Shown here: in pieces, positions 12,674-39,973 of the stretch
Numbering within the stretch: position 1 is the first letter of the stretch
How the letters are laid out: every line of letters starts with the position of its first letter
Assembly (NCBI GenBank): GCA_963825525.1
Contig: CAWGTN010000002.1
Location: 544,001-608,000 of the forward strand
Length of the DNA stretch: 64,000 nucleotides
DNA from: an uncultured Chloroflexia bacterium
GTDB taxonomy: Bacteria > Chloroflexota > Limnocylindria > QHBO01
Direction: 5' to 3'
Translations under genes and position numbers: made by a program
The notes under the pieces: generated by a model
What the model saw: only the letters and a program-made list of their open reading frames with translations
Told to the model about the DNA's origin: nothing
Database searches by the model: none

Positions 12674-12748
12674 GGGCGCCTAGCTCAACGGCAGAGCAAG
12701 TGACTCTTAATCACTAGGTTCAGGGTTCGAATCCCTGGGCGCTCACCA
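12674..12748 (+). tRNA. tRNA-Lys(CTT)
   Basis: GGGCGCCTAGCTCAACGGCAGAGCAAGTGA-CTCTTAA-TCACT...GGTTCGAATCC...GGCGCTCACCA. Confidence 0.97.
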
Positions 12749-12849
12749 ACCCGCTCACCAACCGGGCGATCCTTCTCGGGCTCGCCGATCCGTCCGACCG
12801 TCATCGGGGCCCCCAGGGGCGGCCGCATCGGTCCACACCGGAGGCGCTC

Positions 12850-18792: not shown

Positions 18793-21224
18793 GCCAGGAC
18801 CTCCATGAATGCCTTGCTCATCTGTGTCTCTTCGGCTTCGAGCCTCGCCGTCGCGCGCAGCCATCCCGCCATGGGTCCGCTCTCGTAGCGCCGCACCGCG
18901 ATGCCGCGGGCCAGGAGGTCGCTGTCCACGCGCTCGGGATCCCCGCCGGCCCGGAACGCGATCGAGTTGGTGACCGACGGCAGGACCTCGCAGCCGAGAT
19001 CAGCCAGGAGGACGGCCAGCCGGTCGCGGGCCGCAATGATCGCGTGGCGCCGCTCTCGGGCGGTTGCTTCATCACTCAGAGCCGCCAGCGCGGCGGCCTC
19101 GGAGGGTCCGGCAATCGAGAGCGGCAGGCGGACCGCGTCGAAGCGATCGGCCAGCACGTCGGCGACGACCAGGTAGCCCACCCGGACGCCGGCGAGGCCG
19201 TGCGACTTCGAGAGCGAACGGAGAACGAGGACGTTCGGCAGGGCGTCCTGCATGCCGATGGCCGATGTCGACCCCGGCGCGGCGCCGATGCTGTCCTCGC
19301 CGTACTCCAGGTAGACCTCGTCGACGCAGACGAGCGAGGGCAGTCCGTCGGCCAGCTCCCTGATCTCGTCGAGCGTGTACGCGTCGCCGGTCGGGTTGTT
19401 CGGGCTGCACAGCCACACCAGCCGGGCGGACTCCCGGATGGCGGCCTCCCGGATCTCGGCCACCGGCTGTCGCCGGGCCATGTCGCGACGTGGAAGGCCC
19501 ACGATCCGGGCGCCGGCCAGACGCGCCTCGACCGCGAACATCGCAAACGTCGGCGTCGGGATGATGACCGCATCCCCCGCCGCCAGGGCCTGGGTGGTGA
19601 CCAGGCGAATGAGCTCATCGGCGCCTGCACCCGGGACGACTCGCTTCGGCTCGACGCCGATCCGCGCACCCAGCGCCGACCGCAAGCGGCGGTAGGCGAG
19701 ATCGCCGTACTCGTTCGAGCGGGTTCCGTCGAAGCCACGAAGGCCGTCGACGACGGAGGGCAAGGCGCCGCCGCCCATGGTGTTCATGTCGGCCCGAACC
19801 ACCGAGCTGACCTCGATGCCGGCGCGTTCGGCCAGCTCCTCGTCCGACGGCTCCGCCGGGTACGCCTCCACCCTGCCCGGCAGGCGGAACAGGTCGATGA
19901 CATCGTCGCCGACCGCCGGCTCGAGCGCCGCGCGGGCCAGGCCAGCTCGGGCGCGCACGCTGGCGGCATGGGCGGGAAGGCCCTCGGCCGCGGCGATCGC
20001 GTCGACGATCGGAGAGATGGCGCGGACCCCTGCCGGCGTGAGCTGCTGGACCTCGATCCAGCGACCGAAGCCCTCGACTCCCACGCCGCTCCAGGCCCGA
20101 GCCGCGGCACCGGTGGGCAGGACATGATTCGTCCCGGTCGCGTAGTCGCCGGCCGCGATGGGCGACCAGGGACCGATGAAGATCGCCCCCGCGTTGCGGA
20201 CCTTGACCGCCAGGTCCTCCGCGCCGGCGCACTGCAGGCTGACGTGTTCCGCCGCCACGGCATTGATCACGTCGATGCCAGTGTCGAGATTCGCCACCAC
20301 CACGGCGGCACCGTGGGCGCGGATCGTTGCCAGGGCGCGTTCCCCGGTCGCGAGATTGGCGGCCTGCCTCGGCAGGGCCTCCGCGATCGCATCGAGCAGC
20401 GCGGCGACGTCGCTCACCACGATGGCCACCGAGTCGGGCCCGTGCTCCGCCTGGGCAAGCAGATCGAGGGCCACGAGGTCCGGGTCCGCGCTTCCGTCGG
20501 CAAGGACGATGCACTCCGATGGCCCCGCCGGCAGATCGATGGCGACGCGGTGGCTGACGGCGCGCTTCGCCGCCGTGACCCACGCGCTCCCCGCCCCGAA
20601 GATCTTGTCGACCGGGTCCACGGACTCGGTGCCGTACGCCAGCGCCGCGATGGCCTGGGCGCCGCCCGCCTTGAGGACGCGGCCGACGCCCGCCATCCGG
20701 GCGGCGACCAGGATGGACGACGAGACCGATCCATCGGTGGCGGGCGGCGTCGCGATCACGAGCTCCTCGACGCCCGCCAGGCGTGCCGGCACCGTGAGCA
20801 TGAGGACGCTGCTGGCATAGGCGGCGCGGCCGCCGGGAACGTATCCGCCCGCCCGCGTAATTGGCTGCCAGCGACGCCAGGCGGTCACGCCGGCACGGGT
20901 CCGAACGCGCCGCTCCTGGCGCAACGCGTTCCGCTGCTCGGCGTGGTACCGATGGATGGCGGCCATCGCTTCGGCCAGGGCCGACTCGAGGGCGGGATCG
21001 ACGCGGGCCGCATCCCACTCCTCGTCCGAGACCCACGGGGATTCGAGATCCGCGCCGTCGAATCTCGCGGTGAGCTGGCGCAATGCGTGGTCACCACCGT
21101 CACGGACCGCCGCGATGATCTCGGCCACGTCGGCGACCGGCTCGGCGGGCCGCAGCGTCGCTGCCCATTCGGAACGAGCCGGCTCATCGAGCGTCGACCA
21201 ATCGACGCGCGCCGGGAGGCTCAT
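18789..21224 (-). CDS. hisD: Fused histidinol dehydrogenase (HisD) - histidinol-phosphate aminotransferase (HisC)
   Basis: N-half: YVPGG.A.Y.SSVLM, GGAQAIAALAYG, AGPSE, AQAEH, GDY..GTNHVLPT. C-half: GADELI, PTF.M, CSPNNPTG, DEVY, RSLSK (PLP Lys), G.RVGY. Single 811-codon ORF from ATG 21224. Confidence 0.93.
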   Translation of the reverse strand: MSLPARVDWSTLDEPARSEWAATLRPAEPVADVAEIIAAVRDGGDHALRQLTARFDGADLESPWVSDEEWDAARVDPALESALAEAMAAIHRYHAEQRNALRQERRVRTRAGVTAWRRWQPITRAGGYVPGGRAAYASSVLMLTVPARLAGVEELVIATPPATDGSVSSSILVAARMAGVGRVLKAGGAQAIAALAYGTESVDPVDKIFGAGSAWVTAAKRAVSHRVAIDLPAGPSECIVLADGSADPDLVALDLLAQAEHGPDSVAIVVSDVAALLDAIAEALPRQAANLATGERALATIRAHGAAVVVANLDTGIDVINAVAAEHVSLQCAGAEDLAVKVRNAGAIFIGPWSPIAAGDYATGTNHVLPTGAAARAWSGVGVEGFGRWIEVQQLTPAGVRAISPIVDAIAAAEGLPAHAASVRARAGLARAALEPAVGDDVIDLFRLPGRVEAYPAEPSDEELAERAGIEVSSVVRADMNTMGGGALPSVVDGLRGFDGTRSNEYGDLAYRRLRSALGARIGVEPKRVVPGAGADELIRLVTTQALAAGDAVIIPTPTFAMFAVEARLAGARIVGLPRRDMARRQPVAEIREAAIRESARLVWLCSPNNPTGDAYTLDEIRELADGLPSLVCVDEVYLEYGEDSIGAAPGSTSAIGMQDALPNVLVLRSLSKSHGLAGVRVGYLVVADVLADRFDAVRLPLSIAGPSEAAALAALSDEATARERRHAIIAARDRLAVLLADLGCEVLPSVTNSIAFRAGGDPERVDSDLLARGIAVRRYESGPMAGWLRATARLEAEETQMSKAFMEVLA

Positions 21225-22093
21225 CGCACGACCCTCTCGATCGGGACCACCAGGATGTCGCGGGCGCCCGCCTCCTTGAGCGCCGGCACGATGCGCCACA
21301 GCTGGCTGCGCTCGACGACTGAGTGGACGGCGATGAAGGCCGGGTCGGCGAGCGGCATGACCGTCGGCCCGGAGAGCCCGGGGATCAGGGCGCGGATCCG
21401 ATCGAGCGAATCGGCCGGCGCATTCATCATCATGTATTCGCGGCCCCGCGCATCGAGCACGCTTCGCAGCATCGCCACGAGGTCCCGCACGCGATCGTCC
21501 GCCTCGGCCATCCCGTTGCGTCCCACGAGCACCGCCTCGGAGGCGAGCAGCGTCGCGACGGGTCGCAGCCCGTTCATCCGCAGCGTCCCGCCGGATGCCA
21601 CGAGGTCGACGACTGCATCGGCCACGCCAAGCTGTGGGGTGACCTCAACCGCCCCTCGCACTTCCACGACCTGCGCCTCGACGCCAACATCGGCCAGGTA
21701 GGCGGCGGTGACGCGCGGGAACGAGGTGGCGATGCGACAGCCGACCAGGTCCTTCGCCGACGTCACGTCGGCATCACGCGGAACGGCCAGGACGAGCGAG
21801 CAGGCGCCGAAGCCGAGCGGCAGCACCGTCGACAGCTCACCGCCGTGCTCCGCGACGAGATCGGCGCCCGTGAGGCCGAGCTCGACGAGACCGTCCGCCA
21901 CGTACTCGGCGACGTCCTCGGTGCGGACGAACAACAGCTCGAGGTCGACATTGCGCACCGCGGCACTCAGCCGGCGCTCTGACAACTCGAACTCCAATCC
22001 GGCGCTGCGCAGCAGCTCGATGGCAGGCTCCGACAACCGCCCCTTGTTCGGGACGGCCAGGCGCAGGCGATCCATCGGCGTCGGCGGCGTCAT
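21221..22093 (-). CDS. hisG: ATP phosphoribosyltransferase, long form
   Basis: RLAVPNKGRL, R.EDV..YV, GAVE..P.LG.AD..VDLV.SG.TL..NGL plus the C-terminal regulatory domain. Confidence 0.96.
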   Translation of the reverse strand: MTPPTPMDRLRLAVPNKGRLSEPAIELLRSAGLEFELSERRLSAAVRNVDLELLFVRTEDVAEYVADGLVELGLTGADLVAEHGGELSTVLPLGFGACSLVLAVPRDADVTSAKDLVGCRIATSFPRVTAAYLADVGVEAQVVEVRGAVEVTPQLGVADAVVDLVASGGTLRMNGLRPVATLLASEAVLVGRNGMAEADDRVRDLVAMLRSVLDARGREYMMMNAPADSLDRIRALIPGLSGPTVMPLADPAFIAVHSVVERSQLWRIVPALKEAGARDILVVPIERVVR

Positions 22094-22437
22094 CGGCGTC
22101 GCCTGGCGCGCGCACGTCGGTCCAGCATGAGCCGGTATCCATCGCGCCCGTAGCGCAGCCACTGGTTGACTCGGCTGATCGTGGCGCTCGAGGCGCCGGT
22201 GCGTTCGCTGATGTCGTGGTAGCTCACGCCTTCGTCCAGGAGACGGGCGACCTCCCAGCGCGCGGCGAACTCGCGGAGCTCGTTGACGGTGCACAGGTCG
22301 CGCAGGAAGCGCAACGCCTCGTCACCGTCGCGAAGCGTGGCCACCGCGGCGGCGAGCTCGCGAAGCGGCTCGCTGATCCAGCGATCCTCGGTTCCGGTGC
22401 CCGCCGTTGACTTGTCTGATGCTTGCTGATTGGTCAT
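22090..22437 (-). CDS. TrpR-like YerC/YecD family repressor (HisR-like)
   Basis: FL.DLCT..EL....RW.VA.LL..G.SY..I...TGASSATISRV motif; first gene of the his operon. Confidence 0.9.
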   Translation of the reverse strand: MTNQQASDKSTAGTGTEDRWISEPLRELAAAVATLRDGDEALRFLRDLCTVNELREFAARWEVARLLDEGVSYHDISERTGASSATISRVNQWLRYGRDGYRLMLDRRARARRRR

Positions 22438-23991: not shown

Positions 23992-25131
23992 TCAGCGGCC
24001 GCGTCGGGCCGCCGCACGCCGGGCCCGGGCCAGCCGCTCGCGGGCCGCCGCGATCCGGCGCCACGGACCGTGGACCCTGCGCGGATCAATGGCCTCTGGG
24101 TGCTCCCCGCGAGCGATCTCGGCCAGCAATGCCGATGCCCGATCGAGCTGTCCCGCCTCGGTGAGGAGCTGGACAAGGCTGAACCATCGCCCCGGATCGG
24201 TGACCGGCGCCGCCATGACCCGCTCGACCAGCTCCGCGGCTCGTCCGCCGTGGCCGGCGCGACGGTGCGCAACGATCGCCGCGCGATAGTCCGTGAAGGA
24301 CGGGGCGATCTCGAGCGACTCGAGGAAGTTCAGCAGCAGCTCGGCGTTCTCGGCGCGTTGCTCGTTGGGTCCGCGCCGGACGTGGGCGTCGCGGTATTCC
24401 CCGAGCAGCACGCGCAGCTCTCGCTCAGCCCAGCGCCGTTGGGTCGACCCGATCGGCTCGCGCTCGGCGACCTCGCGCAGTGCATTGGCGCCCCGAAGCT
24501 CCTCACCTGCCGCCAGGTAGGCGTCCCGCAGGTTCGCGTCGACGATCTCGGCTATCGGGGGTGCGCTGGCAACGATTCTCTCGAGGGTGCCGAGCCAGTC
24601 CTCGACCCGACCTCGATCCGCATAGTGGCGCGCCGCGAACCGCAGCCAGTAACGCTCGGAGTGTTCGCGCCAGTCCTCGCCCTCGATGTGATGCTCGACG
24701 ATCCACCGCTCCTGGGCAGCCGGCCCCGCCATGAACACGTCGGTCGGAACGCGGAACCCGGCGGCGGAGCGCCACTGCGGCTGATGCCATTGGCTCGGCA
24801 CTCCGGGCTCGGAACGCAGGTGGCGGGTGGGGCGCACGGTCCGTGGCGCCTCGCCCGCATCGAGCGGCCACGCCAGCGTTTCCGCACTGCCGCCCTCGAG
24901 GGCGTGGTCGTAGTGAAGCCGGCGGAGCGGGTCGCGCAGCTCGGCCCAGGCCCGATTGAGGATCGAAGTCCGGCGCGTCGCGACGTCGGATGAGGGGGCG
25001 CGATCCGGATGGTGCCGAAGCACGGCCGCGCGGAATGCGGCGCGCAACTGCGCGGACGAGGCAGACGGGTCCGTCCCGAGGACCTCGTAGTAATCGCGCA
25101 TCTCGGTGCGGGGCAGTGACGCGGTGGACAT
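23992..25131 (-). CDS. J-domain protein with helical/TPR-like C-terminal region
   Basis: DYYEVLG...LRAAFR...HHPDR...LNRAW..L.DP.RR..YD J-domain; -10 TAGACT 7 nt before ATG 25131. Confidence 0.85.
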   Translation of the reverse strand: MSTASLPRTEMRDYYEVLGTDPSASSAQLRAAFRAAVLRHHPDRAPSSDVATRRTSILNRAWAELRDPLRRLHYDHALEGGSAETLAWPLDAGEAPRTVRPTRHLRSEPGVPSQWHQPQWRSAAGFRVPTDVFMAGPAAQERWIVEHHIEGEDWREHSERYWLRFAARHYADRGRVEDWLGTLERIVASAPPIAEIVDANLRDAYLAAGEELRGANALREVAEREPIGSTQRRWAERELRVLLGEYRDAHVRRGPNEQRAENAELLLNFLESLEIAPSFTDYRAAIVAHRRAGHGGRAAELVERVMAAPVTDPGRWFSLVQLLTEAGQLDRASALLAEIARGEHPEAIDPRRVHGPWRRIAAARERLARARRAAARRGR

Positions 25132-25186
25132 CCGATCGAGTCTAGGGGACGTCCGGCCCATGGCGCACTTCGCTATGCTGCGAGCC

Positions 25187-26179
25187 ATGCCTGCGAAGAC
25201 GGGCTCGGGGCACGCCCGGGCCGGTCACCTCCTCATCATCGGCGGCGCCGAGGACAAGCTGCGACAGCGCCAGATCCTGTCCCGCTTCGTCTCGCTGGCC
25301 GGCGGCAGCCAGGCGCGGATCGTCATAATCTCTACCGCCTCGTCGCTCGGCGACGAGGCGACGGAGCTGTACCTGTCTCTGTTCCGCCAGATGGGCATCG
25401 GCGACGTTCGCGGGATGCGACCCCTCGTACGGGAAGATGCGAACGACGAACGGCTGGTGGCACAGCTGGACGACGCGACGGCAATCTTCATGACCGGCGG
25501 AAACCAGCTGCGACTCTCGAGTGTCATCGGCGGCACCGCATTGGGCCGCGCCATGATCGAGCGCCATGCGCAGGGGGCCATGGTCGCCGGCACCAGCGCG
25601 GGAGCATCGGCCATCGCCAGCCACATGGTCGCCTTCGGCACCAGCGGTGCCACTCCGAAGCAGCGAATGACCCAGATGAGCGCCGGCCTGGGACTGCTGC
25701 CCGGCGTGTTGATCGACCAGCATTTCGAGCAGCGCAATCGATTCGGCCGCCTTCTCGCGCTCGTCGCGCAGTCCCCAGCCCTGCTGGGCATCGGAATCGA
25801 CGAGGACACGGCAGCGCTCGTAAGCCCGAAGGGCATCCTGGAAGTGCTCGGGAAGGGATCCGTGGCGATCATCGACCCGGCCCACATCCAGACCGATGCC
25901 TACGAGGTCAAGCGCCACCGGCCGATCATGGTGTCGGGTGTCATGCTCCACTCGCTTCCCTCCGGATATCGGTTCGACCTCCGGAAGCGCACGCTGATGG
26001 CGCCGCTGCGCCCTGTGAGCGCCACCGATCGCGAGCTTGCGAGCCTCCAGGCAGCCACCAACAACACGCGACGCCTCATCCGGCGGATCGCTGCCGAGGG
26101 GGCCGACGACCAGGCTCCCGAGCGCGCGCGACGCCGCGCCACCCGGGCGAGCCGGATGGACCAGGAGGCGAGCGAGTGA
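25187..26179 (+). CDS. cphB: Cyanophycinase (S51 peptidase)
   Basis: IIGGAEDK, FMTGGNQLRL, GTSAGA (Ser), DQHF.QR.R.GRL (His), GIDEDT (Glu); overlaps cphA. Confidence 0.95.
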   Translation: MPAKTGSGHARAGHLLIIGGAEDKLRQRQILSRFVSLAGGSQARIVIISTASSLGDEATELYLSLFRQMGIGDVRGMRPLVREDANDERLVAQLDDATAIFMTGGNQLRLSSVIGGTALGRAMIERHAQGAMVAGTSAGASAIASHMVAFGTSGATPKQRMTQMSAGLGLLPGVLIDQHFEQRNRFGRLLALVAQSPALLGIGIDEDTAALVSPKGILEVLGKGSVAIIDPAHIQTDAYEVKRHRPIMVSGVMLHSLPSGYRFDLRKRTLMAPLRPVSATDRELASLQAATNNTRRLIRRIAAEGADDQAPERARRRATRASRMDQEASE

Positions 26180-29001
26180 CGGCCCGTACTCGTCGGGCCT
26201 CCCGTGCGACCCAGCACCCCCGGGTGTCGGATGGTCCGCCCGGTGCCGAGCCTGCGCCCGAGCTGAAGATCGTCGAGACCCGTGTCTACCGCGGGCCGAA
26301 CTACTGGAATTACGAACCGGCCATCAAGCTGATCGTGGACCTCGGCATCCTCGAGCACTTCCCGTCGAACACGATCCCCGGCTTCGTCGAGGGGCTGCTG
26401 CAGATGCTGCCCGGCGTCGGGCAGCACACCTGCGGGACCGGCAAGCCCGGCGGCTTCGAGGAGCGCCTTCGCGATGGGACCTGGGTCGGGCACGTCGCCG
26501 AGCACATCGCGCTCCAGCTCCAGCGCGAGGCGGGCAACGAGGTCGGGCGTGGAAAGACGCGCGGCACCGGGGAGCCCGGCCGCTATCACGTCGTGTACTC
26601 GTATGGCGAAGAGTCGGTTGGGCGCCGGGCCGGAACGCTGGCGGTCCGCCTCGTCAATCACCTCGTCAAGGCGGAGCCCGACTTCGACTTCCTCGCCGAG
26701 CTGGAGGCCCTCATCCGGCTGTCGGAGCGCGCGGCGTTCGGGCCTTCCACCCAGTCGATCCTGGACGAGGCCGCCCTGCGCGACATTCCCTGGATTCGCC
26801 TCAGCGAGGGATCGCTCGTCCAGCTCGGCCACGGCATCCACCAGCGGCGCATCCGGGCCACGATGACGAGCGCCACGGGATCGCTGGGAGTCGACATCGC
26901 ATCCGACAAGAAGCTGACGAACCGGCTCCTGGCCGCCACCGGGGTCCCGGTGCCCCGATCCGAGGTCGTTCGCGACGAGGACGGCGCCGTCGCCGCCGCG
27001 AACCGCATCGGGATGCCCGTCGCCATCAAGCCGCTGGATGGAAACCACGGACGCGGCGTCATGCTCAAGATCGATGACGAGGAGAGCGTTCGCGCGGGGT
27101 TCCGGGCGGCCAATGCCCAGACCCGCCGGGGCGCGGTCATCGTCGAAACCTACCTGGTCGGCAACGACTACCGCTGCCTGGTGATCGGCGGCGTGCTGCG
27201 TGCCGTTGCGCAGCGCGTGCCGGCACACGTCGAGGGTGACGGCAAGCACTCGCTGACCGAACTCGTCGAGATCACGAACTCCGATCCGCGGCGCGGCATC
27301 GGCCACGAGAAGGTCCTGACCCGGATCACGCTCGATGACGAGGCCGTCAGCTACGCCCGCGAGCAGGGCTTCGAGCTGTCCGACCGGCCCCCGCGCGGCC
27401 ATCGGGTGTACCTGAAGCGAACGGGGAACATGAGCACCGGCGGCATCAGCATCGACCGGACCGAGGAGGCGCATCCCGACAATGTCGAGCTTGCCGAACT
27501 CGCGGCACGGGTGGTCGGCCTCGACATCGCGGGCATCGACTTGATCTGCCCCGACGTCAGCCTGCCGGTGCGCGAAACGGGCGGAGGGATCGTGGAGGTG
27601 AACGCGGCACCGGGGTTCCGCATGCACACCCATCCGACCGAAGGCGAGTCGCAATACGTCGCCAAGCCGGTGATCGACATGCTCTTCCCGCCCGGCGTCG
27701 ACGCGCGCATCCCGATCGTGGCCGTGACCGGATCGAACGGCAAGACGACGACCGCGCGGATGATCTCGCACATCATGAAGGGAATGGGCCACAAGGTCGG
27801 CCTGACCAGCACGGACGGCATCTATGTCGACGGCCGGATCGTCCGCCGGGCCGATGCCTCCGGCCCGAAGTCAGCCTCGATGGTCCTGCAGAACCCGACG
27901 GTCGACCTGGCGGTCTTCGAAGTCGCGCGCGGCGGCATCCTGCGTGAGGGCCTCGGCTACCAGCGCAATGACGTGGCCGTCGTCCTCAACGTCACCGGCG
28001 ACCATCTCGGGCTGGGTGGGATCAACAGCATCAAGCAGCTGGCCGGCGTCAAGCAGGTCGTGGTCGAGGCCGTGCCCCGCGATGGCGTCGCGGTGCTGAA
28101 CGCGGACGACCCGCTGGTGGCCGAGATGGCGCGCGCCTGCTCCGGTTCGGTCATCTACTTCAGCATGGATCCCGATCACGAGCGCCTGAAGTTCCAGGCG
28201 TCCCGCGGCCGACGATCGGTGACGCTCGAGCAGGGCCGAAATGGCGAGATGATCGTCATGCGACAGGGACGCAAGAGCATGTCACTGGTGTGGACCCACC
28301 TCATCCCGGCCACGTTCGAGGGCCGTGCCCGCATGAACGTCCAGAACGCCCTGGCCGCCACGGGGGCCGCGTGGGCCGCCGGGGCGCACCTGCATGACAT
28401 CAGGCAGGGTCTGCGGACCTTCACCACCAGCTACTTCATGGCGCCCGGCCGCCTCAACATGTTCGAGCTCGACGGCTATCGGGTGGTGGTCGACTACGCC
28501 CACAACCCACCGGCCGTCCGGGCCCTGGGCGAGTTCGTCAACATGCTCACGGTCCCGTCGGCGGGTGGAGCGCGGGCGCCCGTCACGGGGCGCCGGATCG
28601 GGGTCATCGCCACCGCCGGTGATCGACGGGACGAGGACATCGTGGAGCTGGGCGCGGCGGCCGCGGCCTACTTCGACGAGATCATCGTTCGCGAGGATGC
28701 CAACAATCGCGGCCGGCCGCGCGGACAGACTGCCGAGCTGATCGTCAAGGGTGTCGAGTCCGCGCAGAACGACGCGTCGCGTGTCGAATCGACGATCACG
28801 ATCCTCGACGAGCTGGAAGCGACCCGGCACGCGCTCGACCATGCCCACGAGGGTGACGTCGTTGTCGTCTGCGTCGACCACGCCAACGAGGTCTGGAAGG
28901 AGCTGCAGCGCCGACAGCATGGGTCGGCGAGCGAGTCCGATGGACTCCAGGCGGTGGTCGGAGTCGTCGACGCGGACGACGAGATCGAGCTGGAGCTCTA
29001 G
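26176..29001 (+). CDS. cphA: Cyanophycin synthetase CphA1 (N + ATP-grasp + Mur ligase domains)
   Basis: RGPNYW N-domain with Cx19HxxEH, GPST..I, KPLDGNHGRGV, N.STGG..ID.T, EVNAAPGFRMH, AVTGSNGKTT, EVARGG, PGR.N, DYAHN. Confidence 0.97.
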   Translation: MTARTRRASRATQHPRVSDGPPGAEPAPELKIVETRVYRGPNYWNYEPAIKLIVDLGILEHFPSNTIPGFVEGLLQMLPGVGQHTCGTGKPGGFEERLRDGTWVGHVAEHIALQLQREAGNEVGRGKTRGTGEPGRYHVVYSYGEESVGRRAGTLAVRLVNHLVKAEPDFDFLAELEALIRLSERAAFGPSTQSILDEAALRDIPWIRLSEGSLVQLGHGIHQRRIRATMTSATGSLGVDIASDKKLTNRLLAATGVPVPRSEVVRDEDGAVAAANRIGMPVAIKPLDGNHGRGVMLKIDDEESVRAGFRAANAQTRRGAVIVETYLVGNDYRCLVIGGVLRAVAQRVPAHVEGDGKHSLTELVEITNSDPRRGIGHEKVLTRITLDDEAVSYAREQGFELSDRPPRGHRVYLKRTGNMSTGGISIDRTEEAHPDNVELAELAARVVGLDIAGIDLICPDVSLPVRETGGGIVEVNAAPGFRMHTHPTEGESQYVAKPVIDMLFPPGVDARIPIVAVTGSNGKTTTARMISHIMKGMGHKVGLTSTDGIYVDGRIVRRADASGPKSASMVLQNPTVDLAVFEVARGGILREGLGYQRNDVAVVLNVTGDHLGLGGINSIKQLAGVKQVVVEAVPRDGVAVLNADDPLVAEMARACSGSVIYFSMDPDHERLKFQASRGRRSVTLEQGRNGEMIVMRQGRKSMSLVWTHLIPATFEGRARMNVQNALAATGAAWAAGAHLHDIRQGLRTFTTSYFMAPGRLNMFELDGYRVVVDYAHNPPAVRALGEFVNMLTVPSAGGARAPVTGRRIGVIATAGDRRDEDIVELGAAAAAYFDEIIVREDANNRGRPRGQTAELIVKGVESAQNDASRVESTITILDELEATRHALDHAHEGDVVVVCVDHANEVWKELQRRQHGSASESDGLQAVVGVVDADDEIELEL

Positions 29002-30614
29002 CCGCCGAGCCCGACCGCCCTGACCAGCGCCGCCACGCGAGCGGCTTCGACCGGTTGGAATCCGTGGGCCTCCAACCAGACGAAGATCTCGTTGCGCTCG
29101 ACATGGGCCATCACCGCACACACGTCTCCCGGCTCAGCCCGGCGCAACTGCGCCTGGACCGCCCTCATCTCGTTGGGATGGGTTCCGATCCGGCCGCGAT
29201 ATCCGCCCCGACGCGCGCCTCGCCGCAGCAGATCGTTCATCTCACTCAGGTCACGGCCCCGAAGGTAGTGCCGCTTCTCGGCGATGACGAGGTCGTCGGC
29301 GGTTCCACCCAGCGAGCCGAGTGCGGTGAGGATCTCGTCGGTCCGATCCCCCGCCGTCCCGAACGCCAGGCGCACCGCGTGCTGCCCCGCGATCCCGCGC
29401 GCGACCTGCAGCAGCCCCTCGAGCCCGGCCTCATTGTGGGCGAAGTCCACGATGACGAAGATCCCGTCCCGCTCGTAGAGGTTGAGCCTGCCCGGATTTG
29501 CGCTCGCATCCTGGGCGAACGTGCGGAGTCCACGGGCGATGCGCGGAGCCGGGATCCCCAGCGCGTCGCTGGCTGCCGCGGCGGCAAGTGCATTCGCGAT
29601 GTTGTAGCGCGACAGGCCGCCCACGGTCACGGGAAGCTCGTCCGCCCGCCCGAGCCGCCGAGCCCGGCGGCCACCGCCCCGAAGCACGATCTCGCCATCC
29701 ACCAGGGTGGCGACCCTCCCGCCGTGCGCCTCGGCACGCCGCAGTCGATCGGACTCCGGGTCGAGGCTGAACGCGTAGACACGGGCCCGCGTACGACGAC
29801 GCATCGCCCAGGCACGGTCGTCATCGGCATTGAGCACCGCCCACCCATCCCTCTTGGTGATGGCGGGGACCACCCCCTTGACCTCGGCAAGCTCGTCGAG
29901 CGTGTCGATGCCCTGCAGGCCCAGGTGGTCGGCGCTCACGTTGGTCACCACGCTCACGTCATTCGCTGCGTAGCCGATCCCGCGAAGAAGGATCCCGCCA
30001 CGTGCCGTCTCGAGCACGGCGAGGTCGAGGCCGGGCTCCGCCAGGACGCGGCCGGCGCCACCGAACCCGGTCCAGTCGCCGGCCTCGACGAGCTCACCGC
30101 GCACGTAGATGCCGTCCGAGTTCGTCATGCCGACCTTCTTGCCGGCGACCGTCGCGATGTGCGCGATGAGGCGCGTGGTCGTGCTCTTGCCGTTGGTGCC
30201 GGTGACGGCGACGATCGGGATGCGCGGTCGCGGCAGATGGCTGAGCGGTCCGTGCGCGGTGGCGCGCAGCGCGGTGAGCTCGCGTCGCTCGGTCGACCGG
30301 CCGAGGGCGAGCCGGCTGGCCGCGGCAGCAATGGCCTGCGAGATCGTACGGCGACGCCAGGAGAAGGCCACCGCGACCCGCAGGCCATCGACCGAGCGCC
30401 GAGCCGTGATGCGCGGCGAACGAAGGCCGAGCGCCGCGTGGAACCGCCGGATCGCGTCGGCCGCCACCTCGGCCGCAGCGTCGGCCTCCCCCACCGCCTG
30501 CCCGGCGAACTCGAGCTTCAGGGCGGGGCGACGGAAGAAGCGGTTCGGCCCATCGAGGACCCGCAGCTCGACCAGCTCGACGGGAGCGTCCGTTTGGTCG
30601 GACCGGGGCGGCAT
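28998..30614 (-). CDS. CphA-related Mur-ligase protein lacking the ATP-grasp domain
   Basis: N-terminus ELVELRVLDGPNRF resembles the CphA N-domain start and joins directly to IPIVAVTGTNGKSTT, ETARGGIL, DHLGL.GI, LNADD, NPGRLN, DFAHN and AGDR. Confidence 0.88.
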   Translation of the reverse strand: MPPRSDQTDAPVELVELRVLDGPNRFFRRPALKLEFAGQAVGEADAAAEVAADAIRRFHAALGLRSPRITARRSVDGLRVAVAFSWRRRTISQAIAAAASRLALGRSTERRELTALRATAHGPLSHLPRPRIPIVAVTGTNGKSTTTRLIAHIATVAGKKVGMTNSDGIYVRGELVEAGDWTGFGGAGRVLAEPGLDLAVLETARGGILLRGIGYAANDVSVVTNVSADHLGLQGIDTLDELAEVKGVVPAITKRDGWAVLNADDDRAWAMRRRTRARVYAFSLDPESDRLRRAEAHGGRVATLVDGEIVLRGGGRRARRLGRADELPVTVGGLSRYNIANALAAAAASDALGIPAPRIARGLRTFAQDASANPGRLNLYERDGIFVIVDFAHNEAGLEGLLQVARGIAGQHAVRLAFGTAGDRTDEILTALGSLGGTADDLVIAEKRHYLRGRDLSEMNDLLRRGARRGGYRGRIGTHPNEMRAVQAQLRRAEPGDVCAVMAHVERNEIFVWLEAHGFQPVEAARVAALVRAVGLGG

Positions 30615-30636
30615 GTGCGTGAGTATATTGATCGCC
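30615..30636. promoter_or_regulatory. Bidirectional promoter with two overlapping -10 hexamers
   Basis: 22-bp spacer between divergent ATGs; TATATT (+, 30624-30629) and TATACT (-, 30627-30622) each lie exactly 7 nt upstream of an ATG. Confidence 0.75.
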
Positions 30637-31803
30637 ATGCCCGATACGGACGCGCTGCGGCGCATCGTCGACGCGCGCCTCCCGCGCCTGCTGAGGGATC
30701 TCGAGCGGCTCGTCAACGTCGATTGCGGCTCGTACAGCCCCGATGGCGTCAACCAGGTCGCCGACTTCATGGCCGATGAGCTGACCAAGCTCGGGGCACA
30801 GGTCTCGCGCACGCCCCATCAGCCGGAACCCGGTCAACCGGCCTTCGGCGATCTCGTCATCGGGCGCATCGCCGGCAGCGGCCCGCGGCTGCTGCTCATC
30901 GGCCACATGGACACGGTCTTCGAGGCCGGGACGGCCTCCGCGCGTCCATATCGAATTGCCGGCGAGCGTGCGACCGGTCCGGGCGTCACCGACATGAAGG
31001 CGGGCCTGCTCGCCGGCCTGCATGCCATCGGCGCGCTACGCGAGGCTGGCGCGGACCCCGCCGTCACCTTCGTCGCCAACCCGGACGAGGAGGTCGGCTC
31101 GCCGTTCAGCACACCGTTCATCCGGGACCTCGCCGGAGAGCATGACGTCGCGTTCGTGCTCGAGTGCGCGCGCGCCAACGGCGACATCGTCAGCGCCCGC
31201 AAGGGAATCGCCGACTACACGATCGAGCTCGTCGGCCGGGCGGCACACGCCGGCATCGAGCCGGAGAAGGGCCGATCGGCGATTCTCGAGTCGGCGCACC
31301 AGGTCCTCGCACTCCACGCGCTCAATGGCCGCTGGCCGACCGTCACCCTCAACGCCGGCGTGATCCGAGGCGGCACCCGGCCCAACGTGGTCGCCGAGCA
31401 CTGCGAGATCCAGGTCGACCTCCGTGCCTCAACCGTCGCCGAATTCGACGAGGCTGCGGCTGAAGTCGAGCGCGTCGTCGGCGCACCGACCGTGAGCGGC
31501 GTGAGCACCTCGATGCGGCGGACGGCCATGCACCCGCCGATGGAGAAGTCGGCCGCGACCGGTCGCCTCGTCGAACTCGCGGTGCAGGTCGCGGGCGAGC
31601 TCGGCTTCGACCTCCACGATGCGGCGACCGGCGGCGCGTCGGACGCCAACACCTGCGCGGCGCTCGGCCTGCCCACGCTCGATGGACTGGGGCCGGTGGG
31701 TGGCGATGACCACTCCCGCGACGAGTGGCTGGACCTCGCCAGCGTCGCGCCGCGGACCACGCTGCTGGCCGCGCTCATCGGCCGAATCGCGGAAGCTCTC
31801 TGA
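30637..31803 (+). CDS. M20 family metallopeptidase, carboxypeptidase G2-like
   Basis: GHMDTVF, GPGV.DMKAG, DEE.GS, LEC, RKG, AAHAG, N.GVI.GG..PNVV, GG.SDAN, DGLG..G...HS..E. Confidence 0.92.
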   Translation: MPDTDALRRIVDARLPRLLRDLERLVNVDCGSYSPDGVNQVADFMADELTKLGAQVSRTPHQPEPGQPAFGDLVIGRIAGSGPRLLLIGHMDTVFEAGTASARPYRIAGERATGPGVTDMKAGLLAGLHAIGALREAGADPAVTFVANPDEEVGSPFSTPFIRDLAGEHDVAFVLECARANGDIVSARKGIADYTIELVGRAAHAGIEPEKGRSAILESAHQVLALHALNGRWPTVTLNAGVIRGGTRPNVVAEHCEIQVDLRASTVAEFDEAAAEVERVVGAPTVSGVSTSMRRTAMHPPMEKSAATGRLVELAVQVAGELGFDLHDAATGGASDANTCAALGLPTLDGLGPVGGDDHSRDEWLDLASVAPRTTLLAALIGRIAEAL

Positions 31804-31872
31804 GCTCCCGCCGCCGCCCGGGCGCGTCGCTCGGCCGGGGCACGCGGCGCTCCTCGGCTAGAATGGGTCGTC

Positions 31873-32334
31873 GTGACCGATGACTATCGCCACCGCACGA
31901 CGCTGCAGGTGCGCTTCCGCGACATCGATGCGTTCGGGCACGTCAACAACGCCGTCTTCTTCAGCTACATCGAGCTCGCGCGGATTCGCTACGTGCTCGA
32001 TGTCCTGGAATCGTCGGAGCCGTTCGACCGCCTGCCACTCATCCTTGCCCGGGTCGAGCTCGACTACCGATCGCCGATCATGTTCGGCGAGGAGGTCGTG
32101 GTCGACACCCGGGTGGAGCGCATCGGCCGCACGAGCATCCAGATGGCACACCGCATGACGACCGCAGCGACGGCACGGCTGGTCGGCGACGTGCAGAGCG
32201 TGCTGGTGACCTACGACTACGCGTCCGCATCGCCGATGCCGGTGCCGGATGACTGGCGACGACGTTTCGGCGACCATGAGGGCAGATCCTTCGAGTCCGA
32301 TGCGCCACGGCCCGACCGGGCCGCGGCCAGCTGA
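31873..32334 (+). CDS. Acyl-CoA thioesterase (4HBT/YbgC-like)
   Basis: VRFRDIDAFGHVNNAVFFSY.E.AR hot-dog motif. Confidence 0.92.
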   Translation: MTDDYRHRTTLQVRFRDIDAFGHVNNAVFFSYIELARIRYVLDVLESSEPFDRLPLILARVELDYRSPIMFGEEVVVDTRVERIGRTSIQMAHRMTTAATARLVGDVQSVLVTYDYASASPMPVPDDWRRRFGDHEGRSFESDAPRPDRAAAS

Positions 32335-32347
32335 GCACAGGAGACCC

Positions 32348-33766
32348 ATGGCAGAACAGCAACGCTTCGATCTCCTCATCCTGGGCGGGGGCATGAGCTA
32401 CGTCGGCGCCATTCGGGCGGCCCAGCTCGGCCTGAACGTCGGGATCATCGAGCGGGATCGCCTGGGTGGGACATGCCTCAACCGCGGCTGCATCCCATCG
32501 AAGGCTCTCCTGGAGACCGCCGACCTGCTTCACCGGGTCACGGAACAGGGAGCCGAGTTCGGCCTGTCCGGGCACGACGGCATCGGTCTCGACTACGGCG
32601 CGCTCGGGAAGCGACGGGACGCGGTGATCGACAAGCATGTCGGCGGCGTCGAGTTCCTCATGAAGAAGAACAAGGTGACCGTTCTGCGGGGCACGGGCGT
32701 GCTCACCGGCCCGACCAGCGTGCGTGTCACCGGTGGCGAGTCCGGCGACATCGAGGCCTCGGCGGACAATCTCATGCTGGCCACCGGCTCGGTCCCCCGA
32801 GCTCTCCCCGGGCTCGAGCCCGACGGCCACCGCATCATCACCAGCGACGAGGCCCTGACGCGAAATGACGTCCCCGGCCGGGTGGCCATCGTCGGCGCCG
32901 GAGCCATCGGCGTCGAGTGGGCGAGCATGTACCGCGACTTCGGTGCCGAGGTCACGCTCATCGAGTACGCCGATCGGGTCGTGCCGCTCGAGGACGCCGA
33001 GGTCGGCAAGGAGCTTGCGCGCGTCTTCAAGAAGCGTGGCATCGCCATCCACGTCGCCAGCAGCATCGACGCCGAGACGATCAAGAAGAGCGACACCGAG
33101 GTCAGCTTCCAGGTCGCCACGAAGGACGGCTCCAAGCGGACCGACCTGTCCGCAGACGTGATCCTGGTGGCCGTCGGCCGCCGCCCGGTCACCGAGGAGA
33201 TCGGCCTCGACGCGATCGAGGGTGTCGAGCTCGAGCGCGGCTACGTCATCGTCGACGAGTACATGCGCACCGGGGCCGAACATCTCTACGCCATCGGCGA
33301 CATCGTTCCCGGCTTCGCACTCGCCCACGTCGCCAGCCACGAGGCGGTGGTCGCCGTGGAGCACATGGCAGGCCACGACCCGGAGCCCGTGCGCATGCAC
33401 CTCATGCCGCGCGTCACGTTCTGCCGGCCGCAGATCGCCTCGGTCGGGATGAGCGAGGAGGAGGCGAAGGCCGCCGGCCACGAGATCAAGATCGGGGCGT
33501 TCCCGTTCCGTGCGCTCGGCAAGGCCACGATCGTCGGTGAGGTCGACGGCTTCGCGAAATTCGTCGCCGATGCCGAGACCGGGCTCCTGCTGGGCGCCCA
33601 CATCATCGGGCCCCACGCCGGCGATCTCCTGGCCGAGCCGACGCTGGCCCTGCTGGTCGAGGGAACGGCCGCGGAGATCGCGATGAGCGTCCATGCTCAC
33701 CCGACCCTCACCGAAGTGCTCGCCGAGGCCGCGCTGGCGGTCGATGGCGCGGCAATCCACGTCTAG
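32348..33766 (+). CDS. lpdA: Dihydrolipoyl dehydrogenase (E3)
   Basis: GGTCLNRGCIPSK redox disulfide, GAGAIG.E, HAHPTL.E. Confidence 0.96.
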   Translation: MAEQQRFDLLILGGGMSYVGAIRAAQLGLNVGIIERDRLGGTCLNRGCIPSKALLETADLLHRVTEQGAEFGLSGHDGIGLDYGALGKRRDAVIDKHVGGVEFLMKKNKVTVLRGTGVLTGPTSVRVTGGESGDIEASADNLMLATGSVPRALPGLEPDGHRIITSDEALTRNDVPGRVAIVGAGAIGVEWASMYRDFGAEVTLIEYADRVVPLEDAEVGKELARVFKKRGIAIHVASSIDAETIKKSDTEVSFQVATKDGSKRTDLSADVILVAVGRRPVTEEIGLDAIEGVELERGYVIVDEYMRTGAEHLYAIGDIVPGFALAHVASHEAVVAVEHMAGHDPEPVRMHLMPRVTFCRPQIASVGMSEEEAKAAGHEIKIGAFPFRALGKATIVGEVDGFAKFVADAETGLLLGAHIIGPHAGDLLAEPTLALLVEGTAAEIAMSVHAHPTLTEVLAEAALAVDGAAIHV

Positions 33767-33778
33767 GAGGGCAGCGGA

Positions 33779-34841
33779 ATGGCCACGACCGATACCCGGC
33801 CGCGACACATCGAGCTCGGCCTCAGCGATGACGACGTCATCGGCATGTACCGCGACATGCTTCTCGCGCGAGCCGTCGACGAGCGGATGTGGCTCATGCA
33901 GCGCGCGGGCAAGATCGCCTTCATCATCTCGGGCCAGGGGCACGAGGGAGCGCAGGTGGCGACGTCGTGGGTGATGCGCAAGGGGCAGGACTGGATGGCG
34001 CCGTTCTATCGGTCCATCGCCAGCGCCATGACGTTCGGGATGAGCGCCGAGGACATCATCACCGCTCACCTCGCCAAGGCCGATGACGTGAGCTCGGGCG
34101 GGCGGCAGATGCCCGGCCACTACGGCGGCGCCCGGTACAACATCGTCTCCCTCAGCTCGCCGGTCGGGACCCAGGTGCTCCACGCGGTGGGGATCGCGAT
34201 GGGCGCGTGGGTGAAGGGCGACGACGTCGTGACCATGACCCAGTTCGGCGAGGGAACCTCGAACCAGGGCGAGATTCACGAAGCGATGAACTTCGCGGGC
34301 GTCCACAAGCTGCCGGTGATCTTCGTGTGCGAGAACAACGGCTACGCGATCAGCGTCCCGCTCGATCAGCAGGTGGCCGGCAGCTCGGTGGCGGCTCGTG
34401 CGGCCGGCTACGACATGCCCGGCGTGGTGGTGGACGGAGGGGACGTTCTCGCCTGCTACGCCGCCGCACGCGACGCTCACGAGCGTGCCCGCACCGGCCA
34501 GGGCCCCACCCTGATCGAGGCGCGCGTGGTCCGGCTTGACGAGCCACTCGTCGGACGACGACCAGCGCCGCTATCGAGATGCCGACGAGGTGGCCGGGCT
34601 CAAGGAGCGCGATCCCATCCCGTTGTTCGCGGACGAGCTGCGAGCGAGCGGGGTACTCACCGACGAGCTGGAGGAGACCATTCGCGCCGAGATCAAGTCG
34701 GAGGTCAACGAGGCCAACAAGCGCGCCGAGGCACGCCCGGAGCCGACGCCGGACGACGCCCATGAGCGCGTCTACGCCGAGACGATTCCCGGTGGCGGCA
34801 CCGCTCAGCCGCTCGCTCCACTCGGCGACGGGGGGCACTGA
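33779..34841 (+). pseudogene. 2-oxoacid (probably branched-chain) dehydrogenase E1 alpha, +1 frameshift near 34535 (probably a sequence error)
   Basis: GQGHEG.Q, GRQMPGH, FGEG...(N) TPP motif, ENNGYAIS in frame 33779; the conserved R.TSHSSDDD..YR and DP continue in frame 34536..34841. Confidence 0.88.
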
Positions 34842-34842
34842 C

Positions 34843-35829
34843 ATGGCAGAGCTCAACATCCTCGAGGCGATCCGGCAGGCCATGGACGAGGAGATGGACC
34901 GCGACGAGCGGGTCATGGTCCTGGGCGAGGACGTCGGGAAGAAGGGCGGTGTGTTCGGTGCCACCGAGGGCCTGTATGCGAAGTACGGCGAGAAGCGCGT
35001 CCTCGACACACCACTCACCGAGGGAATGATCGCCGGTGCGGCCATGGGCGCCGCGGTCTACGGCCTTCGCCCCGTGGCCGAGATGCAGTTCGCGGACTTC
35101 GTGTACCCGGCCTTCAACCAGATCGTCTCCGAGATCAGCCGCATCCACTACCGATCGAACGGCACCTTCAGCGCCCCGATGGTGATTCGGATGCCGTACG
35201 GCGGCGGCGTTCACGGCGCGCTCTACCACTCGCAGTCGAACGAGGGCTATTTCACGCACACCGTCGGCCTCAAGGTCGTGGCGCCCGGGACGCCGGCCGA
35301 CGCCAAGGGCCTCTTGAAGTCCTCGATCCGCGACCCCGATCCGGTGATGTTCTTCGAGCACAAGAAGACGTATCGGCTGTTCAAGGGGGAGGTTCCGGAT
35401 GGCGACATCGTCGTGCCCATCGGCAAGGCAGACGTCGCCCGCAAGGGCAAGCACCTCTCGATCTTCTGTTACGGGTTCATGCGGACGTGTGCCCTCGAGG
35501 CAGCTGAGACCCTGGCCCGCGAGGATGGGGTCGAGGCGGAGATCGTCGACCTGAGAACGCTCAGGCCGCTCGACATGGAGACGGTGCTGGCATCGGTGGC
35601 CAAGACGGGCAAGGCCCTCGTCGTGCACGAGGCGAACCGGTTCGGTGGCTTCGGCGCCGAGATCGCGGCGGAGATCAGCGAGCGCGCATTCGAGCAGCTC
35701 GACGGCCCCGTTACCCGGCTGGCCGGGCCGGAGGTTCCGGGCGTTCCCTACCACCACGCACTGGAAGACTGGTACATGATCGGTCCGGCGCGGATCGTCG
35801 ATGCCGCGCGCAAGCTCGCAGCCTACTGA
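34843..35829 (+). CDS. 2-oxoacid dehydrogenase E1 beta subunit
   Basis: GEDVG..GGVF.AT.GL, DTPL.E, EMQFADF, HSQS.E, DPV.FFEHK, DLRTL.PLD. Confidence 0.95.
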   Translation: MAELNILEAIRQAMDEEMDRDERVMVLGEDVGKKGGVFGATEGLYAKYGEKRVLDTPLTEGMIAGAAMGAAVYGLRPVAEMQFADFVYPAFNQIVSEISRIHYRSNGTFSAPMVIRMPYGGGVHGALYHSQSNEGYFTHTVGLKVVAPGTPADAKGLLKSSIRDPDPVMFFEHKKTYRLFKGEVPDGDIVVPIGKADVARKGKHLSIFCYGFMRTCALEAAETLAREDGVEAEIVDLRTLRPLDMETVLASVAKTGKALVVHEANRFGGFGAEIAAEISERAFEQLDGPVTRLAGPEVPGVPYHHALEDWYMIGPARIVDAARKLAAY

Positions 35830-35895
35830 CCGATCGATCACAATCTGATCCACACCACGACGTAGCGAACCAGACCAGAGGAAGGCTTCCAACCG

Positions 35896-37383: not shown

Positions 37384-37425
37384 CCCCGAATACCGGTCGG
37401 GCGCCTCATCCCGCGCGTCGAAGGA

Positions 37426-38565: not shown

Positions 38566-38759
38566 TGGCGGGACAGTAGCCCGGGAACGTGCTCATCCGC
38601 CATGGGAGTTCCGGCCACGACGTACTGGGGCGCGTGCGCGCACCACTGCATCCCGAACCCGAGTGTTCGGTCCGGTGCAGTACCCCCGGGTACGTTGGTC
38701 CGCCTCCCGTGCTCAACGCAGGGCAGGCACACCGGGGCGCCCTTCGGTAGACTTTGGCA

Positions 38760-39815: not shown

Positions 39816-39833
39816 GCCGACCGGCCGGTCTCC

Positions 39834-39964
39834 GCCAGATTCAGATGACCTGCGCACCCACGTCACAATTCCCCCAGGCTCGTGCCACCCTGCCGTGCAA
39901 ACCCAGCAGGTGGCATGAATTCGCCCGAAACGCGGGCCGCGTGCGCGCCTGACATGAATCTGGC
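39834..39964. repeat. 131-bp intergenic inverted-repeat element, family B, copy 1
   Basis: Ends GCCAGATTCA...TGAATCTGGC; ungapped homologue at 46477-46607. Confidence 0.7.
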
Positions 39965-39973
39965 AAGGACCCC

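Follow-up and report, generated by a model that had tools for sequence, protein, structure and literature searches.

In the usual account, one enzyme, cyanophycin synthetase 1 (CphA1), is responsible for cyanophycin synthesis, with CphA2 regarded as a recycling variant. In this study, a 64,000-bp stretch of DNA from an uncultured Chloroflexota bacterium of the class Limnocylindria (GenBank assembly GCA_963825525.1, contig CAWGTN010000002.1, positions 544,001 to 608,000; hereafter the window) was annotated and compared with other genomes, which revealed, next to cphB and cphA1, a gene for a CphA1 paralogue without the ATP-grasp (G) domain, hereafter X. This third, reduced member of the CphA family has an intact ligase site and accompanies cphA1 in two large soil lineages, and it points to an unstudied step in the building, finishing or remodelling of cyanophycin. 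Beyond a first-pass annotation made from the sequence alone, we report here counts for X and cphA1 in both lineages, the loss of the zinc motif from the N domain, contrasts in the Mlid part of the M domain, a conserved spacer between X and a divergent gene for an M20 peptidase, the limits of the link between X and that peptidase, and a genome-wide search in which no known dipeptidase for cyanophycin breakdown passed its cut-off.

CphA1 enzymes (7LG5, 7LGQ, 7TXV, 7WAE) combine an N domain, the G domain and a Mur-like M domain with its parts Mcore and Mlid. The M domain phosphorylates the beta-carboxyl group and then adds Arg. The N domain has a primer-generating endo-cyanophycinase activity whose zinc site is the motif Cx19HxxEH, found in 83% of CphA1 at 70% non-redundancy (PMC9262961). 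X has the N-domain fold, Mcore, Mlid, all conserved M-domain motifs and the same placement of N and M, but lacks the G domain (about 330 residues), about 39 N-domain residues and Cx19HxxEH, forms its own clade and cannot polymerise Asp. CphA2 resembles X in being a reduced CphA-family enzyme that has given up one of the two ligase activities; in its case, the G domain is still active and the M domain is truncated and inactive (preprint 10.1101/2023.04.15.537035), whereas X has a full M domain and no G domain. The first-pass annotation had described X as opposite in architecture to CphA2, and the N remnant, the intact Mur-type M domain and the missing G domain of X bear this out. MurE and the other peptidoglycan Mur ligases share with X the central ATPase domain, the C-terminal domain and acyl-phosphate chemistry, but X carries a CphA-type N domain in place of the N-terminal domain that binds UDP-MurNAc.

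On the degradative side, the dipeptide released by cyanophycinase (CphB) is hydrolysed by IadA, IaaA or CphZ, the last of which was found through its encoding in a cyanophycin cluster, and 27% of the genomes with cphA1 lack both iadA and iaaA (PMC9974463). The M20A metallopeptidase encoded beside X resembles these three enzymes in its proposed role alone, the hydrolysis of that dipeptide by an enzyme encoded in the cluster, and belongs to an unrelated fold and family. This role is suggested by the position of the gene and by our failure to find the other three enzymes, and it would be a testable answer to the gap left by cphA1 genomes without iadA and iaaA.

Domain Architecture and Fold of X

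According to Pfam, X consists solely of Mur_ligase_M (residues 137-348) and Mur_ligase_C (375-503). No ATP-grasp family matches it at E ≤ 0.01, compared with six that match the neighbouring CphA1, and no Mur_ligase N-terminal family was identified in it by Pfam. Its domain limits lie at about 1-125 (N), 130-370 (Mcore) and 375-520 (Mlid), and in the predicted structure the N domain passes straight into the P-loop strand, so that the absence of an ATP-grasp domain claimed in the first-pass annotation is upheld both by domain hidden Markov models and by structure prediction. The ligase motifs listed there (GTNGKST, ETARGG, DHLG, NPGR.N and DFAHN) are each present in the translation, at residues 139-145, 202-207, 229-232, 373-378 (NPGRLN) and 390-394, respectively.

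The best NCBIfam model for X is that of cyanophycin synthetase (TIGR02068; 382.8 bits over model positions 477-848, under the cut-off of 850). Scores against the Mur families are all below their cut-offs (MurE, best model, 108.7 versus 373; MurF, 57 versus 288.6; MurC, 55 versus 335; MurD, 48 versus 212), as is that against FolC (TIGR01499; 43.1 bits, cut-off 162.65). X accordingly groups with CphA rather than with MurE or FolC (383 bits versus 109 and 43), in agreement with the tree described below. No CapB or PgsB model is among the 25 listed of the 29 NCBIfam families that match X, in a comparison that included no search aimed at CapB.

BLASTP aligns X residues 131-536 with residues 511-930 of the neighbouring CphA1 at 40% identity. 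The CphA-like N terminus that had been noted from the sequence is weak by BLASTP (X 12-34 with CphA1 30-52, 48% identity, E 0.003) and solid by profile-profile comparison: hhalign, given 86 N-terminal regions of X-like proteins and 22 CphA1 N domains, returned a probability of 99.3% and an E value of 1.2e-20 over X 6-111 and CphA1 24-168. This alignment contains a single gap of about 39 residues in the N domain of X, with which the motif Cys is lost, and the HxxEH positions of CphA1 fall on E49, A52 and D53 of X; the Cx19HxxEH peptidase motif has thus been lost. The CphA1 of the window holds it ("HTC...GHVAEH"). Pfam PF18921 has no match in X at E ≤ 0.01 and matches three of 65 X-like family members.

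The AlphaFold2 model of X, built from a 65-sequence alignment, has a pLDDT of 96.1 and a pTM of 0.94. All top matches of this model in Foldseek are CphA1 (best 7txv, E 1.9e-36), and VIA-align superposes its residues 12-518 on chain 1-877 of TeCphA1 (7wae_A) with a Z score of 42.9 and a root-mean-square deviation of 2.3 Å over 493 residues. The best chain outside CphA is MurE 2wtz_D (Z 28.7), which matches the M part alone. Since the superposition spans chain 1-877, the N and M domains of X are placed as in CphA1, and X as modelled is a CphA1 from which the G domain has been cleanly left out with the N/M packing kept. We also considered that X might be a broken cphA and rejected this, given the open frame, the confident model, the motifs kept across many genomes and a length that stays at 517-594 aa throughout the clade.

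The X Family and Its Age

When 1.84 billion cluster representatives were searched with X, many proteins of 517-594 aa outscored true CphA1. Among 65 of them, Mur_ligase_M and Mur_ligase_C were identified in all 65, DUF4938 in five and the Cyanophycin_syn N domain in three. A quick maximum-likelihood tree was built from 116 Mur modules (88 short proteins, 26 CphA1 and two Mur ligases of the same genome as outgroup), for which every fifteenth of 120 close relatives was kept and proteins without the P-loop pattern or outside the length windows were dropped. In this tree, 71 short rows form an X clade (SH-aLRT 99) with no CphA1 within it, which includes X of the window and of Kribbella, Terrabacter and metagenome-assembled genomes (MAGs) of Chloroflexia, Thermoanaerobaculia and Sphaerobacteraceae; the remaining 17 short rows, probably fragments, fall at various points among CphA1. 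The CphA1 proteins encoded next to X (those of the window, Kribbella, Terrabacter and two from family f3) form a clade of their own with a support of 100, which is not sister to X. A recent tandem duplication as the source of the adjacency was rejected because X is only 40% identical to the M domain of its neighbour and belongs to a separate, old clade.

Relatives of X are named "Mur ligase family protein" at NCBI and "cyanophycin synthetase" at JGI. Full-text searches of the literature returned no description of a CphA paralogue without the G domain and none of an M20 enzyme acting on cyanophycin dipeptides. An X-type enzyme is not mentioned in the accessible parts of the cyanophycin papers PMC10206079, PMC9974463, PMC9262961, PMC9427784, PMC11915815 and the preprint 10.1101/2023.04.15.537035, and the supplementary files of PMC10206079 contain no M20, Mur ligase, carboxypeptidase, Chloroflex or Kribbella. 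Cultured hosts of X exist in Kribbella and Terrabacter.

The Ligase Site Compared With CphA1

The Mur modules of the 71 X-clade rows were compared column by column with those of the 26 CphA1 rows, using a threshold of at least 85% conservation. In total, 54 columns are conserved at this level and identical in the M domains of X and CphA1, including P-loop T138-K143, E202, R205-G-G, D229-H230, N262, R376, D390/H393/N394, G422-D-R (D423-R424), R452-G-R454 and E482. D229-H230 of X is equivalent to D585/H586 of SuCphA1, and the double mutant of these residues has an inactive M domain (PMC9262961). Between the two sets of rows we identified no column that is conserved in both with different residues, and none in which conservation reaches 90% in CphA1 but stays below 50% in X. 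From these comparisons, the best explanation is that X would be a catalytically competent, ATP-dependent Mur-type ligase descended from the CphA1 N and M domains.

The same columns bear on whether X could instead be a non-catalytic or accessory subunit of a CphA1 hetero-oligomer, acting as a scaffold, a regulator or a granule tether, which we consider improbable. X retains the N- and M-domain surfaces, its co-occurrence with cphA1 is strictly one to one across 147 genomes from two phyla, and the oligomers of CphA1 and CphA2 are built partly via their M domains (PMC9262961; preprint 10.1101/2023.04.15.537035). However, all catalytic columns have been kept across a sequence divergence of about 40%, which argues for retained catalysis, and the two genes are always convergent and never co-transcribed. 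Moreover, W672 of SuCphA1, mutation of which breaks the tetramer (PMC9262961), aligns by hand count with R317 of X, and by position counting from G716 with K700 of the neighbouring CphA1.

The remaining contrasts between the two groups are soft, and several concern residues typical of the CphA1 Mlid that X does not keep. D841 is found in 21 of the 26 CphA1 rows, and the corresponding position 447 of X is K, T, L or M; position 843 is D or N in 18 CphA1 rows; R/K818 occurs in 22, at a position where X has T, S or P; and D821 (20/26) and F833 (19/26) are not kept in X. Conversely, Tyr450 is inserted in 59 of the 71 X rows and absent from 24 of the 26 CphA1 rows, and R211 of X is R or K in 70 rows (65 R, 5 K) at a position that is variable in CphA1. 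The stretch before RGR reads E-D-x-(D/N)-L-R-G-R in CphA1 and E-(K/T/L/M)-x-x-Y-L-R-G-R in X, and this stretch aligns with "DEDP-R" of the MurE-like gene of the same genome. In MurE, the DNPR motif helps to select the incoming amino acid, and by this analogy a changed amine specificity of X is possible.

Such a change would agree with the function put forward in the first-pass annotation, in which X adds a residue other than Arg, or an extra residue, to cyanophycin or poly-Asp and a co-regulated M20 enzyme removes it. We regard this as a conceivable but doubtful alternative. The inserted Tyr, the conserved R211 and the likeness of the stretch before RGR to MurE favour it, but no column is conserved yet different between the groups, none with conservation of 90% or more in CphA1 falls below 50% in X, and we know of no modified cyanophycin from these phyla. 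In addition, the Mlid surface of CphA1 is densely charged and seems to guide the polymer (PMC9427784, section 10), so that the Mlid residues that differ may contact the polymer and not the incoming amine, and the differences could equally mean weaker polymer binding.

Linkage of X With cphA and cphB

The neighbourhood of X was surveyed in two samples of 151 genomes each, the class sample, which includes the source genome (G000), and the Propionibacteriales, to which the Kribbella genome belongs. An X-type match was identified in 74 genomes of the class sample, 49 of family f1 and 25 of f3, and in none of the 49 genomes of f2, the six of f4 and the one of f5. A CphA M-domain match is present in 73 of these 74 genomes. 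X and cphA lie on one contig in 69 of them, convergently in all 69, and on different contigs of fragmented assemblies in four. The exceptions are G053, with a partial X and no cphA, and G102, with a CphA fragment at a contig end and no X. A cyanophycinase over the cut-off is encoded in 73 of the 151 class genomes. The counts of this study took in some genomes that carry an unpublished flag, namely G084, G093 and G120 (positives for X, M20 and cphB), G067, G091, G106 and G112 (rows for IaaA or for cphB below the cut-off) and G218 (one of five Propionibacteriales M20 matches), and no conclusion changes without them.

Among the Propionibacteriales, 74 genomes have one X and one CphA match, 77 have neither and none has one alone. 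In 72 cases the pair lies on one contig, always convergently, with the matched stretches 97-8899 bp apart (median about 3 kb), which brings the convergent pairs of both samples to 141 of 141 found on the same contig. X is also convergent with cphA(-cphB) in nine of 12 full-length cases at named loci, among them those of Kribbella, Terrabacter, Chloroflexia and Thermoanaerobaculia, and two more are cut by contig ends. In f3 and in the Actinomycetota, the flanks differ and the X-cphA pair persists. The association of X with cphA and cphB, for which the first-pass annotation had proposed a neighbourhood survey, is therefore very strong in two phyla (73/74 in the class sample and 74/74 in the Propionibacteriales).

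This coupling argues against a substrate unrelated to cyanophycin (a peptide, cell-wall component or metabolite), with X merely co-inherited or transferred with cphA1 and the M20 enzyme an unrelated housekeeping peptidase. Consistent with such a substrate are eight genomes that have M20 without cyanophycin genes, in unrelated neighbourhoods (GT87, gamma-glutamyltranspeptidase and others), the unrelated genes (sigma factor, PCuAC) that lie between X and cphA in Actinomycetota, and one MAG in which X and cphA1 are unlinked. However, none of the 302 genomes clearly has X without cphA1, the sole case being a partial X match; the pair stays together although its flanks differ from family to family and from phylum to phylum; and X has the N domain specific to CphA1, packed on M as in CphA1, a feature not shared by the peptidoglycan Mur ligases. 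We therefore give this alternative little credence.

Several of the surveyed loci have further features. The Chloroflexia MAG (G154, contigs C8 and C23) contains two separate X-cphA pairs. In the Thermoanaerobaculia MAG (G153, contigs C283 and C291), X adjoins a shortened cphA-like frame, and a full CphA1 is encoded on another contig. In an f3 genome (L119; G149:C1:25000-44999), the 7 kb between X and cphA (9920-16734) hold an ABC importer (SBP_bac_8, two permeases and an ATPase with TOBE_2), an Amidohydro_3 enzyme and an arginase-family gene that directly adjoins cphA, a set that looks like arginine or polyamine utilisation inside a cyanophycin cluster. In Kribbella (L008, 7210-7986) and Terrabacter (L011, 7111-7872), the gene immediately upstream of X, on the same strand, encodes a short-chain dehydrogenase of the enoyl-ACP-reductase type (adh_short_C2).

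The M20 Peptidase and the Divergent Spacer

The nearest solved structure to the M20 enzyme of the window is carboxypeptidase G2 (CPG2, 1cg2; E 6.8e-44), with which it shares the M20 catalytic and dimerisation domains. The positions HMDTV, GPG-x-x-D, DEE, E and H that align with CPG2 are kept, and we take these to be the ligands of the two metals and the catalytic Glu of M20 enzymes. An M20 orthologue (E ≤ 1e-50) is encoded on the X contig in 69 of the 74 X-bearing class genomes, divergently from X in all 69 and with the matched stretches at most 1866 bp apart; in two further genomes it is on a separate contig, and in three it is missing at this threshold. The Chloroflexia MAG has the same divergent layout.

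The spacer between X and M20 contains the word TGAGTATATTG (30620-30630), which is invariant in all six genus-level loci aligned, whose X proteins are 68-75% identical to X of the window. A scan of 30 loci identified the compact layout CAT-N-AGTATATT-N-ATG in 12, each of them from genus g1. TATATT on the plus strand lies 7 nt before the ATG of M20 and TATACT on the minus strand 7 nt before the ATG of X, which suggests that these hexamers may represent back-to-back, overlapping -10 boxes of two leaderless divergent transcripts that would start from a shared site. A consensus scan of 28800-30900 returned no sigma-70 sites and no terminators. Of the sequence data sets listed as containing 25100-31810, 18 from 7 studies are of DNA and none is of RNA.

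The shared 22-bp spacer with its conserved word, the divergent arrangement of X and M20 in 69 of 74 genomes, and the removal of C-terminal glutamate by the nearest solved relative of the M20 enzyme would all suit the addition of a residue by X and its removal by M20. However, M20 is absent at the X loci of Actinomycetota and present without X in eight genomes, which makes an obligatory enzyme of removal unlikely.

Just beyond M20, genes of the AzlC-AzlD type (branched-chain amino-acid exporter) were identified in the f3 locus L119 (4921-6625) and in the Chloroflexia MAG (L037, 4542-5478), and L119 also has a RidA/L-PSP gene at this place.

The Missing Dipeptidase

In the source genome (2.58 Mb in 4 contigs, 91.8% complete), Asparaginase_2 (IaaA) and the AstE/AspA-type domain of CphZ have no matches, and the best score of the IadA model is 22 bits versus a cut-off of 331. 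It had been noted from the sequence that no isoaspartyl dipeptidase is visible in the window; this was borne out, and none is over the cut-off in the whole 2.58-Mb genome either, which makes the M20 enzyme a candidate for the last step. Throughout the class sample, IadA and the CphZ-type domain are absent (each 0/151). IaaA is encoded in 48 of the 151 genomes (45/49 in f2, 0/50 in f1, 2/44 in f3) and in two of the 74 X-bearing ones, and f2, which holds nearly all IaaA, has no cyanophycin genes. The M20 orthologue shows nearly the opposite distribution (G000 plus f1, 45/50; f3, 33/44; f2, 1/49). This pattern fits a role of M20 as a general isoaspartyl or beta-Asp-Arg dipeptidase of these lineages, which would explain the genomes that have M20 alone. 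In the Propionibacteriales, IaaA occurs in one of the 74 X-bearing genomes and IadA in none of the 151, the CphZ type not having been searched there. Because genomes of this order with cphBA-X are mostly without the known enzymes and without M20, something else must serve there.

Proposed Function

We moderately favour the reading that X acts in trans as an isopeptide ligase, with Asp-terminated cyanophycin chains or short fragments as its substrates. X would retain acyl-phosphate chemistry as well as the N/Mcore cleft in which CphA1 holds the Asp-terminated cyanophycin end, and its direction of use would be synthetic, joining the beta-carboxyl group of an Asp-terminated chain or fragment to an amino acid by an isopeptide bond, beside CphA1. 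Because it has no G domain, X cannot extend the poly-Asp backbone, and because its zinc motif is lost, it cannot cut primers; both suggest that it would work in trans beside CphA1. The missing N segment of about 39 residues and the unconserved charged residues of Mlid lean towards short substrates or an amine other than that of CphA1. Despite the old divergence and the changing flanks, the strict coupling to cphA1 over two phyla, with single further loci in Thermoanaerobaculia and Sphaerobacteraceae MAGs, suggests that the substrate comes from cyanophycin metabolism. In Limnocylindria, the M20 enzyme would most likely hydrolyse a small isopeptide product, either the beta-Asp-Arg that CphB sets free or whatever X makes, as judged from its sequence and position.

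Several observations weigh against this reading. The neighbouring CphA1 has a complete M domain and leaves no missing activity for X to supply. X never lies within the cphBA operon and is always convergent to it, so that co-transcription cannot be claimed, and in f1 synteny extends over the entire region between DnaJ and E2 and in part explains the linkage there. In the Sphaerobacteraceae MAG, the twelfth of the full-length cases at named loci, a full cphA1 lies on another contig and there is no cphA within 8 kb downstream of X. The putative polymer-binding role of the lost N segment and the Mlid residues is drawn from published text and an analogy with MurE rather than from coordinates. As for the M20 enzyme, it differs from CPG2 in that it scores below the cut-off of the glutamate carboxypeptidase model (NF004788; 303.4 bits, cut-off 349), and the distribution of M20 and IaaA follows family boundaries and thus reflects few independent events. 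Eight f3 genomes have an M20 orthologue (49-61% identity) but no X, cphA or cyanophycinase over the cut-off, in neighbourhoods without any other gene of the window. Among the Propionibacteriales, M20 orthologues (E ≤ 1e-60) are present in five of 151 genomes and in one of the 74 with X, where the gene is 1.5 Mb away. The partnership of X and M20 proposed in the first-pass annotation thus holds in Limnocylindria and one Chloroflexia MAG and fails in the Propionibacteriales and in these eight f3 genomes; M20 is a lineage-specific addition to the module and not a universal partner of X.

Soil Chloroflexota and Actinomycetota might use, in their cyanophycin metabolism, a second, stand-alone isopeptide ligase without counterpart in the cyanobacterial and proteobacterial models, which would make either a different cyanophycin, with a non-Arg side chain or a capped end, or short beta-Asp-X peptides for seeding or regulation of polymer synthesis. 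In Limnocylindria, the divergent M20 would be its dedicated hydrolase and also represent a fourth, unrelated class of cyanophycin dipeptide hydrolase; we offer this as a speculation that is rather unlikely. Cyanophycin and its dipeptides are of industrial interest, and an enzyme that alters the side chains in trans would be useful.

Organization of the Locus and Neighboring Genes

The locus is best explained as a three-gene cyanophycin module with a fourth gene in Chloroflexota, comprising cphB-cphA1, the convergent X and the divergent M20 (Table 1). The GTG start of cphA1 overlaps the stop of cphB by 4 bp, and the stops of the convergent cphA1 and X share 28998-29001 (4 bp). The coordinates given in the first-pass annotation for cphB-cphA, for these overlapping stops and for the head-to-head M20 gene across its 22-bp spacer were all confirmed. 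The start of cphB is uncertain (ATG at 25160, 25175 or 25187), with the frame open from the GTG at 25106. The frame of cphA1 opens about 30 codons (26176-26265) ahead of the first residue matched by the CphA1 model, and the GTG is a putative start. Pfam matches of cphA1 comprise Cyanophycin_syn, RimK/ATP-grasp (six ATP-grasp families), Mur_ligase_M and Mur_ligase_C.

Table 1. Coordinates of the cyanophycin genes, X, the divergent spacer and the M20 gene in the window.
Feature	Coordinates	Strand	Description
cphB (cyanophycinase)	ORF 25106-26179, annotated 25160..26179	+	TIGR02069 250.9 bits versus cut-off 126.6; Pfam Peptidase_S51
cphA1 (cyanophycin synthetase 1; N + ATP-grasp G + Mur-like M)	26176..29001	+	941 aa; TIGR02068 1144.3 bits versus cut-off 850
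X (CphA1 paralogue without ATP-grasp)	28998..30614	-	538 aa from ATG 30614; shrunken N domain + M domain
X-M20 divergent spacer	30615..30636		22 bp
M20A metallopeptidase, carboxypeptidase G2-like	30637..31803	+	388 aa; Pfam Peptidase_M20 92 bits, M20_dimer 77 bits

The G+C content of the window is 67-73%, and the closest named relatives of its proteins come from MAGs labelled Candidatus Limnocylindria or Chloroflexota. Downstream of M20, a region of 31873-40792 encodes a thioesterase, lpd, E1 alpha, E1 beta, E2, lipA and lipB (2-oxoacid dehydrogenase and lipoylation), which are syntenic with the cyanophycin genes across f1 and not in f3. Upstream of the cyanophycin genes lie a DnaJ-domain gene, a histidine kinase gene and hisG (21221-22294, minus strand). 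Adjoining hisG on the same strand, a single frame of 836 aa (18789-21299) combines Histidinol_dh (residues 55-451) with a class I/II aminotransferase domain (523-825), an apparent hisD-hisC fusion.

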